Positions 6,670 through 58,136 are shown, counted from the stretch's first letter. The stretch: 59,211 nt of DNA from Thermococcus sp. (GCF_017656495.1 NZ_JACDNS010000012.1:1-59211), one strand, 5' to 3'. Program-made: numbers and translations. Notes: generated by a model from the letters alone, not told the origin.

Positions 6670-7731
6670 GTGAGAGAAATGAAAAATCCTTTTGAAAAAA
6701 TGCCAACTATCCTTTTAGCTGACGAGCTTATCGATAAAGCCTTTAGGAGAGCTGAAAAAGCAGCATCATCATTCACCCCGCGAGGGAATAAAATAAGCAA
6801 AGCGAGACAGAGGGAGGAGCTTAGAATAAGGACTGTTTCAAACGTCATTAGGGATAATCTGAGGAAAATCCTTGACAGAACTCCTGGTGTCTCAACTCTG
6901 CCTCCATTCTATCAGGAGCTAGTCGATACACTCGTTGATAGAAAGATGTTCCATAAGGCTTTAGCGTCTGTGAATTGGGCAATAAAGACAATAAGAACGC
7001 TTGAAGAGAGATATGTGGAAAAGATTAGATATTCAAGAGACCCAAATGAGATCGCTCAGCTTAGAAGGCAGTTTTACGGAAGAGTTGCAAGCGTCATTAA
7101 GGACATAGCAGACAACTTGGAGTATCTCAACAAGGCTAGAGATGTTTTGAAGGACTTACCTGTTATAGACCTCAGCTTGCCAACCATTGTCATAGCTGGA
7201 CATCCAAATGTTGGAAAGTCAACTCTTCTCAGGCAGCTCACAAATGCGAAGCCAGAAGTGGCGAGTTATCCCTTCACAACCAAGGGAATTAACGTTGGGC
7301 AGTTTGAGGAGCACTGGCTCAAGTATCAGGTGATAGACACCCCTGGTTTGCTTGACAGACCTTTAAGTGAGCGCAATGAAATAGAAAGGCAGGCAATTTT
7401 AGCATTAAAGCACCTCGGAAAAGTGATAATTTACATCTTTGACCCATCGGAGTACTGTGGATTTCCACTTGAGGAGCAGATGCATCTCTTCGAAGAGATT
7501 TATGAGGAGTTCAAAGAGTTCCCATTCATAGTTGTTTTGAACAAAGTTGATGTAGCTGATGAAGAAAAGATAAGGAGAGTTGAAGAGTTCTTGAGAGCTA
7601 GAGGGATAGAGCCTATAAGGATTGTGGCTAAAGATGGACTTGGAGTTGACGAAGTTAAAAAGAAAATATTGGAAATTCTAAGGCCAGAACTAGAGAGGGC
7701 AATTTACGCTCCCAAAGATGTTCCGCAGTAA
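6670..7731 (+). CDS. NOG1-family GTP-binding protein
   Basis: GHPNVGKSTLL is the G1 motif and DTPGLLD is the G3 motif. An N-terminal helical NOG1-like domain is present. 353 aa. Confidence 0.65.
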   Translation: MREMKNPFEKMPTILLADELIDKAFRRAEKAASSFTPRGNKISKARQREELRIRTVSNVIRDNLRKILDRTPGVSTLPPFYQELVDTLVDRKMFHKALASVNWAIKTIRTLEERYVEKIRYSRDPNEIAQLRRQFYGRVASVIKDIADNLEYLNKARDVLKDLPVIDLSLPTIVIAGHPNVGKSTLLRQLTNAKPEVASYPFTTKGINVGQFEEHWLKYQVIDTPGLLDRPLSERNEIERQAILALKHLGKVIIYIFDPSEYCGFPLEEQMHLFEEIYEEFKEFPFIVVLNKVDVADEEKIRRVEEFLRARGIEPIRIVAKDGLGVDEVKKKILEILRPELERAIYAPKDVPQ

Positions 7732-8618
7732 GGACAAAACTCTAGGTATATTGGCTTCATAGCATTGCATTTTTCACATTTCTCCTTCAGTTTTACTCCA
7801 CAATTCGGACAAAAGATATAATCGTCTTTTATTGGGAATCCACAACTATAACACTTGTTTTGTCCAATTCTACGCTTGTAAAGTTTTTCAAGCTTGAAGT
7901 ATTCTTTTCTGATGTAGTATAAAGCTAAAACCGTTGCTACGGCACCAAAAAGACTCAAGCCAATTACTTGAAAAGTGTTCCAAACTGCTTGAACTATTAA
8001 GTAAGCGAACAGGAGGGATGAATAAGCGACTAGAGATACAGCATAGATGTTCTTATAACGTCTGAATATGAGAAACGAAGCCAAAAATACAGGAATTACA
8101 AAAATAAGCTTCAAAGCCAAAACTTTTGCCCGGTAGGCAGAGTAGGCATTTCTGTACTCTTGATAAGCCTTTTCTCTCTGCTGATCAATCTGTTGGTTAA
8201 CGCTGTTTAGCTGTTTTTCTATATCTACATATGCCCTCTCAATGGCTTGAAAAGCTAAATATGCTTTTTCATATTCCTTTTTTGCCCTTAAATACTCATT
8301 TTTAATCTCTTCTGTCGCGTTGCCACTCTCTAAAGCAACCCTATATTCTTCACGCTTGAAAATATAGAGCTCATTTGCCTTTGTTAAATTGGTCTTTGCT
8401 TCTTCATAGAGACTCCTAAAATGCTTAAACATGACTAACAATCTGCTCCGGTTTTCCAAAAGCTCTTTAGACACATACTTAGATTCATAATCTCCAAAAT
8501 CTGGTCTTTCAATGGCATTGTTGAGTTCGCTCAGAAAATTTATGCTCGCTAAAAGGAGGAACAAGACAAAAGCGCTCGCTAAAATCTTTTCAATTCTGCT
8601 ATACTCCACAAATCTCAC
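7704..8618 (-). CDS. membrane protein with an N-terminal coiled coil, two TM helices and a C-terminal double zinc ribbon
   Basis: C-terminus reads CYSCGFPIKDDYIFCPNCGVKLKEKCEKCNAMKPIYLEFCPYCGTSL. The central region is a heptad-rich coiled coil with two hydrophobic helices. Confidence 0.45.
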   Translation of the reverse strand: MRFVEYSRIEKILASAFVLFLLLASINFLSELNNAIERPDFGDYESKYVSKELLENRSRLLVMFKHFRSLYEEAKTNLTKANELYIFKREEYRVALESGNATEEIKNEYLRAKKEYEKAYLAFQAIERAYVDIEKQLNSVNQQIDQQREKAYQEYRNAYSAYRAKVLALKLIFVIPVFLASFLIFRRYKNIYAVSLVAYSSLLFAYLIVQAVWNTFQVIGLSLFGAVATVLALYYIRKEYFKLEKLYKRRIGQNKCYSCGFPIKDDYIFCPNCGVKLKEKCEKCNAMKPIYLEFCPYCGTSLGA

Positions 8619-47369: not shown

Positions 47370-47954
47370 GTGAAAAGAGAAAAAACTCTCTTTTTGATAG
47401 TTCTGCTTGGAATTGTTTTAGTTGTTAGTGGATGTACCCAAAACGGCATACCCACTGAAACACAAAAAACACAGGCTCGTGAAAGTACAATCCAGCAGAC
47501 TACAACACAAACATCTCCAACACAAACATCAAGTGAAGTACAGATCAAAAAAGGTGTTGAAACCGTCAGTATATTTAATCAAACTTATGCAGTGAACATG
47601 TCCCTAATACCTCCTGCATATCAGAAATGCCTCCAAAAAGCCCCTGAAGTTATCAGAGCATATTACGAAGCTGTGAAAAATGAGCAACCGGTCTTGGACT
47701 ATTTTGACTTGAGAATAGTGGATAATGAGTCCCTCGTTGAACTTCATAATGCCCTCTATCAAGCAGTTGATTTTTCAAAGCTTGAGATAAGCGATCCAGA
47801 ATGTGTTATGGCAAATACAGAACTTGTTGCGTGTAAATACCACTACTCCGCAGAGATAACAAAAGATGGGGAAAGCAAGAGCATTGAAAGAAACTACATA
47901 ACATTTCTGTCATCAGATGAATGCAAGATAATCTGGACGGAGGAGGAAAAATGA
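47370..47954 (+). CDS. lipoprotein (lipobox VVSGC) with Thr/Gln-rich linker
   Basis: Signal peptide plus Cys. GTG start proposed after a GGGGG/GGGAG tract. Its stop overlaps the next start (ATGA). Confidence 0.45.
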   Translation: MKREKTLFLIVLLGIVLVVSGCTQNGIPTETQKTQARESTIQQTTTQTSPTQTSSEVQIKKGVETVSIFNQTYAVNMSLIPPAYQKCLQKAPEVIRAYYEAVKNEQPVLDYFDLRIVDNESLVELHNALYQAVDFSKLEISDPECVMANTELVACKYHYSAEITKDGESKSIERNYITFLSSDECKIIWTEEEK

Positions 47955-53679: not shown

Positions 53680-53786
53680 GCTATATTCTGTCCTCTTTTC
53701 TTTTTATCATGCTCTGTGATATACTCCGCCCTAAAGGGCGAGGGTTTCAAAAGAAAAACAGAGATTAAAAAAGAAAAACGGAAAAC

Positions 53787-54785
53787 TCATTCAATCTTTG
53801 CTCCACAAATAGGGCAGAACTTTGCTCCTTCTGGAACTATGTGCCCATTGGGACAGCGGTTTATCTTTGCTCCACAGTTGGGACAGAATCTTGCACCTGG
53901 CGGTAGTGGATTACCACAGTTGGGGCATATCTCTTTCTGCTGAGCTGCAGGCTGAGCCGGAGCAGCTGGTTGCTGTGGCTGAGCGGGTGGAACCCCAGCT
54001 CCAGCATAAGGCTGAGCTGGTTGCTGATAAGCTGGAGGCTGCATCAGCTGGGGCATGAGTACCATTCCAGTTCCAATAGCTGCTCCTTGGCTTTTTCCAA
54101 GTTCAGCAGCTACTTGTTTTGCTGTGTCGAGTTGCATGACATACTGGGCATTTCCAGTCTGCATAATCCAGAACAGCCTCTGTCTCCACTCATCCGTTGT
54201 ATTAACACCTTCAATTTTGACATCAACAAGTTCAAGTCCTAAACGCCTGAAATCCTCCAAAAGCTTGACCTTAACCTGCGTGCTCACCATGTCAAGGTTC
54301 TGGAAGAGGTCAACTATTGAGTACATGCTTAAGTGCTTCATCATGTTCTCGTTGAAATATGCCCTGACAAACTTTGTAACGTCGGTTGCATCATAAAGTC
54401 CCTGCCCTCCGACGACTTCCGTTATGAAAAGCACTGGATCAGCTACCTTAAACCAGTAGACCCCGTAGTATTTGATTGGAGCAAGCTCTCTTGTCTGTGT
54501 TTCTCCACCATATCTTCCCTGAAACTGCTTCATGCTGACAAAGATTACAGTAGCCTTGAATGGACTATTACTTCCTCCAACAAGCTTGTAGAGGAGAGGA
54601 AGATTTTGTGTTGTTAGAGTGTGCCTTCCCGGGCCGAGAACGTCGTAAACCTTTCCATCCCTCATGAAAACAGCAACTTCGTATTCATGAACTATCAGCT
54701 GAGAACCCCAAGTTATGACCTCGTTGGGATAGCGCCAGATTATTTCATCTTCTCCCGGATTGACCCATTCGATAACGGTGACCAT
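53787..54785 (-). CDS. SPFH/Band_7_1 (YdjI-like) protein with Pro/Gln/Ala-rich linker and three C-terminal zinc ribbons
   Basis: The N-terminus VIEWVNPGEDEIIWRYPNEVITWGSQLIVHEYEVAVFMRDGKVYDVLGPGRHTL parallels the B. subtilis YdjI start pattern. The C-terminus is CPNCGNPLPPGARFCPNCGAKINRCPNGHIVPEGAKFCPICGAKIE. Start set at the ATG with GGTGAG upstream. Confidence 0.6.
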   Translation of the reverse strand: MVTVIEWVNPGEDEIIWRYPNEVITWGSQLIVHEYEVAVFMRDGKVYDVLGPGRHTLTTQNLPLLYKLVGGSNSPFKATVIFVSMKQFQGRYGGETQTRELAPIKYYGVYWFKVADPVLFITEVVGGQGLYDATDVTKFVRAYFNENMMKHLSMYSIVDLFQNLDMVSTQVKVKLLEDFRRLGLELVDVKIEGVNTTDEWRQRLFWIMQTGNAQYVMQLDTAKQVAAELGKSQGAAIGTGMVLMPQLMQPPAYQQPAQPYAGAGVPPAQPQQPAAPAQPAAQQKEICPNCGNPLPPGARFCPNCGAKINRCPNGHIVPEGAKFCPICGAKIE

Positions 54786-54786
54786 T

Positions 54787-55281
54787 TCACTCACCTACCA
54801 CGAAGCTCATTCTGTTTGAAACTATGGTTTCAAGTTCATTAAGCTTGTCCTCAAGGTTTAAAACTGCCATGCCGAGCCTTGAAGGATCAGCTACAGCCGA
54901 ATTCAAAGCCTTTGCATCTTCAAGTATCGACTGAGCTTTGTCAATCATCATGTAGTCGTACTGGATAAGCTTTCTGAGCTCCTCTTCCTTGAACTTTATC
55001 CTGTCAAAATAGCCTCTGTAGCCTGCCTCAGCATGCAGAATCCTGCTCTGAAGCATCATGAGCTTTTTCCTAAGGTTCTCGATTCCCATAAGCTGCTGGC
55101 AGTTCACCATTACGCATCTCTGCAGAGCTCTTTCAAGCTCCCTCTTTGCCTGTCCAAGTATTTCAGCAACTTTTCCCCTAACTAAACGGTCATCTTCTCT
55201 CAGCAGTTCTTTATTCTTGTAGCCATGAAAACCTGGGATTAGCCTTTCAATATGCTCAAATATACTAAGCTCTTTTCCCAT
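54787..55281 (-). CDS. helical cytoplasmic protein of unknown function (about 165 aa)
   Basis: ORF in the operon. Composition predicts coiled-coil and helical structure. A GAGGTG tract overlaps the upstream stop. Start is uncertain (GTG 55290, ATG 55287 or ATG 55281). Confidence 0.4.
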   Translation of the reverse strand: MGKELSIFEHIERLIPGFHGYKNKELLREDDRLVRGKVAEILGQAKRELERALQRCVMVNCQQLMGIENLRKKLMMLQSRILHAEAGYRGYFDRIKFKEEELRKLIQYDYMMIDKAQSILEDAKALNSAVADPSRLGMAVLNLEDKLNELETIVSNRMSFVVGE

Positions 55282-55291
55282 AGCCATCACC

Positions 55292-56179
55292 TCATCTAAA
55301 ATGAATGCTACCCCTATGACCTCCTATAAGCTGAGATACCTCCCTCTCTGCTCTTGTTCCACTAAAGAGTATTACCCAAGCTCCAGCTATGCCAGGAATC
55401 AGACCACTGAAGAAGCCCCACATCCCTGCAAGCTTTCCAAAGATCAAGCCAAACAGTACTCCAGCACCAATTATTCCAGCTCCCAGTGCACCGGCTTTCT
55501 TTCTTGCTTCCTGAGTTAGTGGGTATGTTGCATTAATCACAACTCCTGTACTTCCATCTACATATCCCAAGAACTTTTTGCCTTCGTAGACATAAAATAT
55601 CTCCCAGATCGGATAGTGAACAAGTCCTTGATAAACAACTTCAAGCTCAACTTTGTCCATTGTGAAGTAATCTCCAGATACCTCAGCTTCTTCTTTAACC
55701 TGTTTAAGAACTTTCTCAACTGCCATTTTTTCAGCCTCTTCCTTTGATATTTCTGGTTCATAGTACTTGCCTTTCTTAACAATACTCTCATCGAAGAATC
55801 TTTTGCCTCTGACAGGAAACGGATAGTCCTCAAGGAGCCATTTGAGTTTATTCGTTGCGGGAATTCCAATAAAGGCAACTTCTTCAGCTGTACTGTCCTT
55901 AAGGTTTGCATGTATGTAGAAGAAGTGCACTGGGAGATAGTACAAAGTTTTGCTTTCAACCTTTGCTCCAACTATATCGGCAGGTGCTCCATATTGCCTT
56001 GAGAGAAACTTGAGCAGTAGCCCAGCAGGGTCTTTATTAATTACTGGGAAGAAAAAGTGATCTCCTACCTTTTCTCTGCTCTGAACTTCAAATGTCGTCC
56101 CGCAGTAGGGACAGGTGGTAACGGTGATTGTATCAGGAACTTTAAATTTGGCTGAACAGATGGGACATTCAACCTCCAT
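55292..56179 (-). CDS. membrane protein with N-terminal zinc ribbon (CPIC...CPYC), central soluble domain and C-terminal glycine-zipper TM segment
   Basis: MEVECPICSAKFKVPDTITVTTCPYCGTTF. C-terminus GALGAGIIGAGVLFGLIFGKLAGMWGFFSGLIPGIAGAWVILF. It is a paralog of the upstream gene. Confidence 0.5.
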   Translation of the reverse strand: MEVECPICSAKFKVPDTITVTTCPYCGTTFEVQSREKVGDHFFFPVINKDPAGLLLKFLSRQYGAPADIVGAKVESKTLYYLPVHFFYIHANLKDSTAEEVAFIGIPATNKLKWLLEDYPFPVRGKRFFDESIVKKGKYYEPEISKEEAEKMAVEKVLKQVKEEAEVSGDYFTMDKVELEVVYQGLVHYPIWEIFYVYEGKKFLGYVDGSTGVVINATYPLTQEARKKAGALGAGIIGAGVLFGLIFGKLAGMWGFFSGLIPGIAGAWVILFSGTRAEREVSQLIGGHRGSIHFR

Positions 56180-56183
56180 AATC

Positions 56184-57170
56184 TCACCTCTCCACCCTCT
56201 CCCCCTTGAGGAACATATAGCCGGAGCCCGCACTTATAGCAGCACCGATTATCATTGGAACTATTGAAACGGGCTCTGAACCTCGGGATACAAAGAACAG
56301 CGTCCCAAGGCCACTAATTAGGATGCCGCCTATCATCCCACCTATGTACTGGGCTTTTCTAAGCATTGTCATTGGCTCAGTTGCAGCAACATCTTTGCCG
56401 TCCCACCCTGCAAAGATGACCTTGTATATCGAATTCCCATACTTGTAATAAACAGTCCATATTGGCAAGAGGAGTAGCCTTACGTTTTCAGGTTCTTTAG
56501 CCTCACATTTGAAGAAATCAATTCTATCTGCCTTAGCTTTATACCTTTCTCTGATTCTGTCAATGGCATCCTCTTTCATCATCATCTTTGCCTGCCTCTC
56601 ATCAAACTCGGTGTTCAAAATTTCCAATTTTATTTTCTGCCATTCATCCTCGTCAAGCTCAAGAAGCTTTTTGGATTTGACATGTGCCATATTACCTCTA
56701 TAATACCTCATAACCTCATCAATGCCAAAAGTTCCAACCTGCCTCCTTGCTGGGCCCATAAGATAAAAGGACTCATGTATGAAATCATGATAATACTTTT
56801 CAACTTCATGACATTCCTCGTGTTCCTCTCCTTCTGAATCGGTGTATGTGTGACACTCTGTTTCCCTCACCATGTACTCTATTTCACCTTCCACGTAAAC
56901 TGAACCGCTCCAATACGGGACATAAACTCCTTCCATATCAACAACTTGTATTTCGTTTTTTATCCTCCTTAAATCAAAGTCCCTTTCAACTCTGTTCATA
57001 AAAGCTTTGTAAATGTCGTTTTTGCTTAGAGAAGGGACAATATAGAGGTTTTCAGTGTGGAGGTTGCCACTGATGTGGTTGGGGTAACCGCAGTACTGAC
57101 ATATTGCAACTATTGTTTCTGGAGAGATTTCTAATGGAGCATTACATCGTTCACACCTGAATGCCTCCAT
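56184..57170 (-). CDS. membrane protein with N-terminal zinc ribbon (CERC...CQYC) and C-terminal glycine-rich TM segment, paralog of the previous gene
   Basis: Same domain order as the previous gene. The central blocks are conserved (ENLYIVPSLSKNDIYKAF versus DHFFFPVINKDPAGLLLKF). Start set at the ATG with GGAAGTGGTG upstream. Confidence 0.5.
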   Translation of the reverse strand: MEAFRCERCNAPLEISPETIVAICQYCGYPNHISGNLHTENLYIVPSLSKNDIYKAFMNRVERDFDLRRIKNEIQVVDMEGVYVPYWSGSVYVEGEIEYMVRETECHTYTDSEGEEHEECHEVEKYYHDFIHESFYLMGPARRQVGTFGIDEVMRYYRGNMAHVKSKKLLELDEDEWQKIKLEILNTEFDERQAKMMMKEDAIDRIRERYKAKADRIDFFKCEAKEPENVRLLLLPIWTVYYKYGNSIYKVIFAGWDGKDVAATEPMTMLRKAQYIGGMIGGILISGLGTLFFVSRGSEPVSIVPMIIGAAISAGSGYMFLKGERVER

Positions 57171-57372
57171 AGGCACCACTTCCTTATTACTACCGTATTT
57201 AAGTATATAAAATCTTCGTAGAGATTGGAGTTAAATCAAATATTAAGTAATTTGACATTAAGGACTAAGAAAGAAAATTTTTTGGTAAACATGGGGATAA
57301 AGTAAAAGGAAAATTCTTCAAATTGGAGCATTTTCTAAAAATAAATCAAAGAGATTTCGAAAACTTTTGATA

Positions 57373-58038
57373 TTAGTACATACTCAACCTTTTGACTAAA
57401 TCTATAAGCTCAGTAAGGCGTCTAATGTAATAATCAGCATCCTCTGTAGGGTTACCAAATCTTAAGACCTGAACTGCCTTAATTCTCGCTCTGTGTGCTG
57501 CTTCCACATCTAGCTTACTGTCTCCAACAACAAGAGCTTCATTAGGGGAGACATTCAGAGCTTTGAGGGATTTCTGAATCAAGTATGGATTTGGCTTTAC
57601 GCCATCGAGATATGAATAATCCTTGCCAAAAACAGCGTCAAAGTATTTCTTCAAATCAAAAAGCTCCAGCACGAATTCTGTGCATTTTTGAGAAGCATTA
57701 CTTACAGCAGCAAGCTTTAATCCCATTGTTTTTAGCTCAGAAAGAGTTTGAGGGACATCTGGAAAGATCTTAATCTTGCCCTCTTTCGCTAATGCTTTCC
57801 GATATTCAAGATTTACATTATCAACAAGCTTCCAAAATTCTACATGATCAATTCCAAGCTTTTCAACATAACTTCGAGGAAGAATTCCTTTAACCATCTT
57901 CCTATATGTCTCAAAATCTACATTTATATCATGCCGTTGGAATATAGGCTCAAGATATCTGCTAAACCACTCTTTTACATCATAGGTCTCGTAGTACACA
58001 AGAGTTTCGTCAACATCAAAGATTAACGCCTTAATCAA
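57373..58038 (-). CDS. HAD-superfamily hydrolase (subfamily IA-like)
   Basis: LIFDVDETL is the DxDxT motif, VSNASQ is motif II, and GDSKLDVEAA is motif IV. Start proposed at the TTG that gives MIKALIFDVDETL, with GGTG 7 nt upstream. The ORF-track start is 58071. Confidence 0.6.
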   Translation of the reverse strand: MIKALIFDVDETLVYYETYDVKEWFSRYLEPIFQRHDINVDFETYRKMVKGILPRSYVEKLGIDHVEFWKLVDNVNLEYRKALAKEGKIKIFPDVPQTLSELKTMGLKLAAVSNASQKCTEFVLELFDLKKYFDAVFGKDYSYLDGVKPNPYLIQKSLKALNVSPNEALVVGDSKLDVEAAHRARIKAVQVLRFGNPTEDADYYIRRLTELIDLVKRLSMY

Positions 58039-58136
58039 TTTGCACACCTCAGACAAGACCGATATCATCACTATTCAGCCGGTTGATCCGTCATCATTGG
58101 CCAAGAAAAATTAAAAGAAAGAAGTTAAAAACTTTT

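Follow-up and report, generated by a model that had tools for sequence, protein, structure and literature searches.

The closest described relatives of the locus reported here are found in the pspA-ydjGHI (pspA-samGHI) operon of Bacillus subtilis. Recruitment of the soluble protein YdjI, as well as PspA, to the Bacillus membrane requires YdjG and YdjH (PMC8581546). YdjG consists of two N-terminal zinc ribbons, a YpeB-related domain with an NTF2-like fold, and a single C-terminal transmembrane (TM) segment, and according to Ravi et al. the coupling of ydjG-ydjH-ydjI with pspA typifies Firmicutes (PMC11237479). More recently, a preprint proposed that SamI (YdjI) restrains SamGH signaling and reported that PspA was dispensable for that phenotype (bioRxiv 10.64898/2026.02.06.704340). 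Here we describe four tightly packed, co-directional open reading frames (ORFs), in the order A-B-C-D, that exactly fill positions 53787-57170 on the minus strand of a 59,211-bp contig from a metagenome-assembled genome (MAG) of Thermococcus sp.; the whole contig is referred to as the window, and operon features are on the minus strand throughout. We consider it moderately probable that these genes are a single operon and that its products make up an archaeal version of the Bacillus YdjG/YdjI (SamG/SamI) membrane module that works independently of PspA.

The Thermococcus locus resembles the Bacillus operon in its compact packing and in two kinds of product: a soluble SPFH protein of the Band_7_1 type in which a low-complexity linker leads to a C-terminal zinc ribbon (D, which shares about 26% identity with YdjI) and a YdjG-homologous protein with a zinc ribbon, an alpha/beta domain, and a C-terminal TM region (A and B). 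It differs in several respects. Neither PspA nor the TPM-domain protein YdjH (SamH) is encoded, and YdjG is duplicated, with each copy carrying one ribbon and a hairpin where YdjG has two ribbons and one TM segment. Whereas Bacillus YdjI has one ribbon, D has a double ribbon, and the gene immediately preceding the SPFH gene encodes C, an additional and unrelated four-helix protein. Nothing like C was described by Ravi et al. (PMC11237479). The host differs as well, being an archaeon with ether-lipid membranes and no peptidoglycan.

Genes A (56184..57170, 328 amino acids [aa]) and B (55292..56179, 295 aa) encode the YdjG-like proteins. A first-pass annotation, made from the sequence alone, had read them as paralogous membrane proteins, and paralogy was borne out by BLASTP (2e-7) and by hhalign (99.1%, E 6.8e-19, 242 columns). 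The N-terminal zinc ribbon that had been assigned to both could be located in each as a single CxxC-x14-CxxC unit, formed by C6, C9, C24, and C27 in A (aa 6-27, nucleotides [nt] 57090-57155) and by C5, C8, C23, and C26 in B (aa 5-26, nt 56102-56167). The C termini are glycine rich and hydrophobic, as annotated, but each contains two adjacent segments rather than a single TM helix: 275-297 and 301-321 within a Gly-rich hydrophobic hairpin in A (aa 275-321, nt 56208-56348), and 228-250 and 253-275 within a Gly-zipper hydrophobic hairpin in B (aa 228-275, nt 55355-55498). Consistent with this, an AlphaFold2 (AF2) model of B, with a predicted local distance difference test (pLDDT) score of 83.8, showed the ribbon, two alpha/beta units (aa ~41-107 and 146-220), and a helical hairpin at residues 223-275. 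The region between ribbon and hairpin is likewise alpha/beta in A, and the Pfam matches of B were weak, to Zn_ribbon_4 and to PepSY (E 0.2 for the latter). Because both ends of the hairpins are flanked by basic residues, we infer from the positive-inside rule that the whole soluble part of A and B, ribbons and alpha/beta domains included, faces the cytoplasm.

As a YdjG reference, a B. subtilis-type pspA-ydjG-ydjH-ydjI locus was recovered from a metagenome with a pattern derived from the published ydjG primer (PMC8581546), and the starts and ends of the recovered proteins exactly matched those predicted by the published primers. The A-family profile aligned to YdjG at 98.2% by hhalign (E 4e-14, 97 columns) and the B-family profile at 97.6% (E 3.6e-12, 235 columns), the latter alignment spanning the second ribbon of YdjG through the end of its soluble domain. 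A phmmer search with YdjG as the query returned A at 4e-11 and B at 7.7e-4. We conclude from these alignments that A and B are true homologs of YdjG/SamG that differ from it in having a single ribbon where it has two and a hairpin in place of its lone TM segment, in line with the Bacillus parallel drawn in the first-pass annotation.

Gene D (53787..54785, 332 aa) encodes a soluble SPFH protein of the YdjI/SamI type. As annotated, it combines a Band_7_1 domain (PF13421; 107.5 bits against a cutoff of 24, E 9.5e-31; aa ~16-204, nt 54174-54740) with a PQA-rich linker (aa ~240-285, nt 53931-54068), and in Pfam it also matched Band_7 (PF01145, 2e-21) and DZR (1.4e-10). Three zinc ribbons had been counted at the C terminus, but only two were found. 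Four metal-binding knuckles, C287xxC and C301xxC in ribbon 1 and C312xxxH and C324xxC in ribbon 2, together make up the one DZR match (aa 287-327, nt 53805-53927), and the CPNGH variant knuckle is kept in the closest relatives. A BLASTP comparison with B. subtilis-type YdjI (3e-26, 26% identity) aligned aa 1-308 of D with aa 8-322 and included the linker and the ribbon, such that the resemblance first noticed at the N terminus runs from end to end. A scan of D for hydrophobic segments found none, and no solved structure was detectable by sequence search. Elsewhere in the window, a 304-aa protein (7704-8618, minus strand) ends in a related double zinc ribbon, as had been noted (Pfam DZR, 3.9e-11; 38% identity to the cassette of D over 47 aa), and outside the ribbon that protein has no Pfam match. 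This cassette is a widespread mobile domain, and its presence is not evidence tying the 304-aa protein to the operon.

Other SPFH systems offer more distant comparisons. D resembles HflK/C-FtsH, stomatin-NfeD, and the flotillins in having an SPFH/Band 7 domain, expected oligomerization at the membrane, and a dedicated partner gene. Unlike those classical scaffolds, D has neither a TM segment or hairpin of its own nor a protease or NfeD partner, and the YdjG-like proteins and C are unrelated to NfeD or FtsH. In archaea, Makarova et al. described proteins with SPFH, coiled-coil, and zinc-ribbon regions in the ESCRT-like "Meth_adaptin" loci of methanogens, and linked such SPFH proteins to YdjI (bioRxiv 10.1101/2024.02.06.579148). 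The presence of an archaeal SPFH protein with a zinc ribbon is common to both, but gene context sets them apart: Meth_adaptin loci center on a Vps4-like ATPase and adaptin-appendage and GOLD-domain proteins, none of which was found either in the window or among the C-D loci surveyed below. No account of an archaeal YdjG-C-YdjI module, or of the C family, was found in open-access papers or on bioRxiv, in agreement with the earlier statement that no described archaeal counterpart was known.

Gene C (54787..55281, 164 aa) encodes a soluble four-helix-bundle protein without a TM segment. Its start was placed at the ATG at 55281 because 93 of 98 homologs are 164 aa long, as is C itself, and because every aligned one opens with MGK or MS. 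Gaps of 1 to 4 nt had been annotated throughout the unit; this holds for A-B (4 nt) and C-D (1 nt), but the B-C gap is probably 10 nt and would be 1 nt solely with the GTG at 55290 as the start. Proteins C and B are 100% identical to NCBI entries H0Z18_08895 and H0Z18_08900, respectively. In the confident AF2 model of C (pLDDT 86.9; predicted template modeling score 0.84), a short N-terminal helix leads into a compact bundle made of helices 24-58, 64-82, 99-129, and 133-162. Two loop motifs, IPG(F/Y)xGY(K/R)xKExRRExDxLxR and A..GYxGxFD, are near-invariant in the family and occur in C as IPGFHGYKxKExxREDDRLVR (aa 15-35, nt 55177-55239) and HAEAGYRGYFDR (aa 83-94, nt 55000-55035).

The C family is large and poorly covered by existing models. 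An exhaustive profile search, with sequences clustered at 50% identity, gave at least 1440 clusters at E values of 1e-3 or below and 797 at 1e-10 or below. A Pfam scan of 60 members revealed no shared family, and no Pfam model covers the family. The only curated model that detected C was NCBIfam LIMLP_15305 (NF047596), at 31.9 bits (E 1.1e-7) against a cutoff of 210, and 53 of 60 C relatives also matched below threshold (best E 3.7e-20). Because C and these relatives all fall short of the cutoff, C is homologous to LIMLP_15305 but is not its equivalog. LIMLP_15305, a hypothetical protein of Leptospira, is close to C in size (~170 aa) but is a distant relative with no known function, and its sole mention in the literature is as the neighbor of a non-coding RNA (PMC7567364). 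A search of PDB sequences with the C profile returned nothing below an E value of 0.03.

One way in which C could act is as a functional stand-in for PspA, that is, as a nonhomologous or unrecognizably divergent membrane-binding effector that is recruited by D to damaged membrane, in which case the operon would be an effector-containing, phage-shock-like repair system. C is all-helical and occupies the operon slot beside the SPFH gene in loci that lack PspA, and the first-pass annotation had suggested that it might be a divergent PspA/ESCRT-III-like scaffold. That suggestion failed every test run. The C-family profile aligned to PspA with an hhalign probability of 0.16%, none of 60 members matched PspA_IM30 or Snf7 in Pfam at an E value of 1 or below, and the PDB profile search returned no PspA, Vipp1, or ESCRT-III chain. 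The bundle helices of the model are 19 to 35 residues long and do not include the long alpha1-alpha2 hairpin of ESCRT-III; the PspAA domain is alpha/beta (PMC11237479). The mean hydrophobic moment of the N-terminal helix was 0.36, compared to 0.31 ± 0.16 for shuffled sequences, a difference within one standard deviation that therefore lends no support to amphipathic membrane binding. Moreover, one locus (L098:702-4039) encodes a C domain fused to DUF4178, followed by a bona fide PspA (PspA_IM30) and a Band_7_1-DZR protein. DUF4178 has been reported as a component of PspA and PspA/polyamine operons (PMC11237479), and L098 shows that the C family is linked to the Psp world, yet C is no PspA equivalent, because a C-domain protein is encoded there alongside a real PspA. 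We conclude that C is a component separate from PspA, and we regard its service as a PspA stand-in as quite unlikely.

To place the operon among other genomes, gene neighborhoods were scanned in one genome per GTDB species with the C-family alignment as the query. At least 546 loci with a C relative were found; the best 80 were analyzed, and their ORFs were searched with hidden Markov models built from the A, B, C, and D alignments. Most of the best 80 loci come from Bathyarchaeia, and others come from Nitrososphaeria, Thermofilales, Thermoproteales, Methanocella, Hadarchaeales, Nanoarchaeia, and Thermoplasmatota, with a few from MAGs labeled bacterial. A Band_7_1 zinc-ribbon gene lies directly downstream of C, at a median gap of 1 nt, in 69 of the 70 loci with enough downstream sequence, in answer to the question raised by the first-pass annotation of whether the genes are co-localized elsewhere. 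A YdjG-like gene lies within 1 kb upstream of C in 45 of 69 loci, usually as one copy of ~248 aa for which the B profile gives the best score. All four genes in the order A-B-C-D are found again in L001 (with a C protein 43% identical to that of Thermococcus), in L008 from Aigarchaeota, and in L017 and L018 from Thermofilales, and L077 also has two YdjG-like copies in the Thermococcus style. Consecutive locus tags confirm the adjacency in cultured Thermococcus genomes, as for A, B, and C in Thermococcus sp. LS1 (E3E26_06580, 06585, and 06590). Outside archaea, a C-D pair with a 1-nt overlap is found in an Eremiobacterota bacterium (L101 and L102) and recurs in three separate MAG assemblies. 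Further C-D loci come from MAGs labeled as Bacteroidales, Nitrospirales, Acidiferrales, and Anaerolineae (L064, L022, L070, L081, and L084); the gene order of L064 is the same as in Bathyarchaeia loci, and it may be a mis-binned contig.

A second kind of membrane protein accompanies C and D in other lineages. A small polytopic protein of ~115 aa with three or four TM segments is encoded downstream of D in 45 loci (L021:7503-7841 and 44 others). Its gene follows D in Bathyarchaeia and precedes C elsewhere, and Thermococcus does not have it. A related small membrane protein precedes C in a few loci without a YdjG-like gene, and other such loci have a protein with three or four TM segments upstream; further examples of small TM proteins are L083:3897-4340, L015:5395-5880, and L099:8186-8542. 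In L004, the small membrane protein in the same position gave a weak, sub-threshold LiaF-TM match (E 0.002).

Variant loci bear on how the parts may fit together. The archaeal locus L099 (4001-8542) encodes a zinc ribbon-C fusion, a ribbonless Band_7_1 protein with SHOCT at its end, a helical Cys-rich protein of 311 aa, a 519-aa protein carrying an A-like ribbon, and the small TM protein; the components are those of the other loci, with their domains shuffled. The ribbon is thus on C instead of D, which argues that C and D act together. Two further loci are a bridge from the archaeal module to the Bacillus operon: in Atopobiaceae, a YdjG homolog (phmmer 9.5e-71 against YdjG) adjoins a TPM/YdjH-like gene, and in L011 a Band_7_1-GYF gene is paired with a YdjG-like gene.

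The reading that we favor, a PspA-independent YdjG/YdjI-like module, would work as follows. The C-terminal glycine-rich helical hairpins of A and B would anchor both proteins in the membrane, and the two would probably pair with each other to serve as a membrane receptor or sensor. D would be recruited from solution to A and B at the cytoplasmic face and would oligomerize there into an SPFH scaffold. C, predicted to be translationally coupled to D, would be its obligate, stoichiometric partner and may act as an adaptor or as a regulator of assembly or signaling. By analogy to Bacillus, the complex may monitor or stabilize the cytoplasmic membrane during envelope stress, and the membrane-stress or membrane-remodeling role first suggested for the operon is a tentative one drawn from the same analogy.

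Several observations weigh against this reading. Searches by phmmer with two PspA sequences, and with B. subtilis YdjH and the Atopobiaceae TPM protein as queries, found neither PspA nor TPM/YdjH in the window or within ~6 kb of C in any of the 94 loci covered by these searches; the four operon proteins themselves gave no TPM match in Pfam. In Bacillus, YdjH is the partner that contacts YdjI, and since it was not found here, the Bacillus wiring is not simply transferable. No YdjG-like gene is nearby in about a third of C-D loci, many of which encode a small polytopic membrane protein in its place, so that A and B are not universal partners. Profile searches of Pfam, NCBIfam, and the PDB detected no relative of C with known function, fold searches with the full-length B model gave nothing informative, and open-access papers and bioRxiv yielded no experiment on any archaeal member. 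Finally, one C-family member lies beside a vWA-ArnB_C gene in place of an SPFH gene. In this locus (L005; GCA_027048895.1, the relatives of which are annotated as Desulfurococcales), a small protein with three TM segments is followed by a 187-aa C-family protein (L005:6001-6564), a 389-aa vWA-ArnB_C protein, and a Metallophos (PPP-type) phosphatase, and no SPFH gene follows the C-family gene.

The neighbor in L005 indicates that the C family may also partner ArnB-like regulatory proteins. ArnB-type proteins belong to the phosphorylation-based regulatory network of archaea, and the locus is thus consistent with a module that is mainly a signaling device, in which A and B are the sensor, D is the brake, and C is the output or relay to another pathway, with no structural scaffold. 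Zinc ribbons on three of the four proteins point the same way, as does the proposal, introduced above, that SamI restrains SamGH signaling independently of PspA. Neither in the window nor in the 80 genome loci, however, does the operon have a linked kinase, transcription factor, or DNA-binding domain, and the signaling explanation overlaps heavily with the YdjG/YdjI-like membrane module, from which sequence cannot separate it. We consider a mainly signaling function unlikely, if less so than a PspA-like role for C.

The boundaries of the operon were read from the sequence. The sole intergenic gap longer than 10 nt lies upstream of gene A, where an AT-rich region of ~200 nt (57171..57372), read by eye, is the probable location of the promoter of the unit. 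The region contains the TATA-like sequence ATTTTATATA (~57213-57204), and a GGTG Shine-Dalgarno-like element lies immediately 5' of the A start codon. After the D stop codon, the T-rich tract gttttccgtttttcttttttaatctctgtttttctttt (53745..53786) is likely the archaeal oligo-T terminator of the four-gene unit.

The neighbors of the operon, a HAD hydrolase, the L-serine kinase SerK, and a large predicted lipoprotein, are unrelated to it. Between positions 47921 and 53182 (plus strand), GC content is 48 to 52%, compared to ~40% elsewhere in the window, and this block contains two large adjacent genes of 893 and 845 aa, which may be acquired surface-protein genes. The 845-aa gene has a lipoprotein-like N terminus (...LVAGCMGG) and is convergent with gene D. 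On the other flank, the HAD-hydrolase ORF at its maximal extent (57373-58071) is overlapped at its 5' end by a match to the Rfam C/D-box small RNA sR14 (58047-58101, minus strand; 51.6 bits, cutoff 38), which makes a start further downstream probable for the hydrolase gene.

SPFH and zinc-ribbon proteins are known from some conflict systems, and the GC-rich block with its two surface-protein genes adjoins the operon, such that the four genes might instead be an antiviral or conflict system, or cargo of a mobile element, rather than a housekeeping envelope module. The four proteins gave no significant PADLOC match, however, the sole match being C to Csx1/Csm6 (E 0.0065, 14 bits), and no relative of C was found among 2.9 million viral contigs. 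The HAD hydrolase and SerK genes are housekeeping flanks, and vertical conservation of the module is seen in both Thermococcus and Palaeococcus, as well as throughout entire classes, Bathyarchaeia among them. We consider an antiviral or mobile-element origin very improbable.

Envelope-stress systems of archaea are largely unknown, and in one survey more than half of archaeal genomes lacked any Psp domain (PMC9239133). What is new here is mainly the identification of C as a widespread, uncharacterized partner of soluble SPFH proteins, together with a testable archaeal envelope module. The ~170-aa proteins brought together here form a large family, not covered by any Pfam model, with a clear, testable partner in the SPFH protein. 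The work also indicates that YdjG/YdjI (SamG/SamI), a pair hitherto described as a PspA accessory of Firmicutes, is much older and more widespread and can exist without PspA, and the PspA-free occurrence in archaea fits the recent Bacillus result in which SamGHI acts independently of PspA. As a broader and more tentative proposal, which we hold with somewhat less than even confidence, the C family, recognizable by IPG(F/Y)xGYKxKExRRExDxLxR, may be an unrecognized, near-obligate partner of YdjI/SamI-type soluble SPFH proteins in archaea and in a number of bacterial phyla; alongside membrane anchors that are YdjG-like or small and polytopic, it would form an ancient PspA-independent envelope-surveillance complex and the main SPFH-based membrane-stress module of archaea without PspA, such as Thermococcus. 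Because Thermococcus species can be manipulated, the module is a genetically tractable candidate, and it would allow a test of how archaea monitor or stabilize their ether-lipid membranes.

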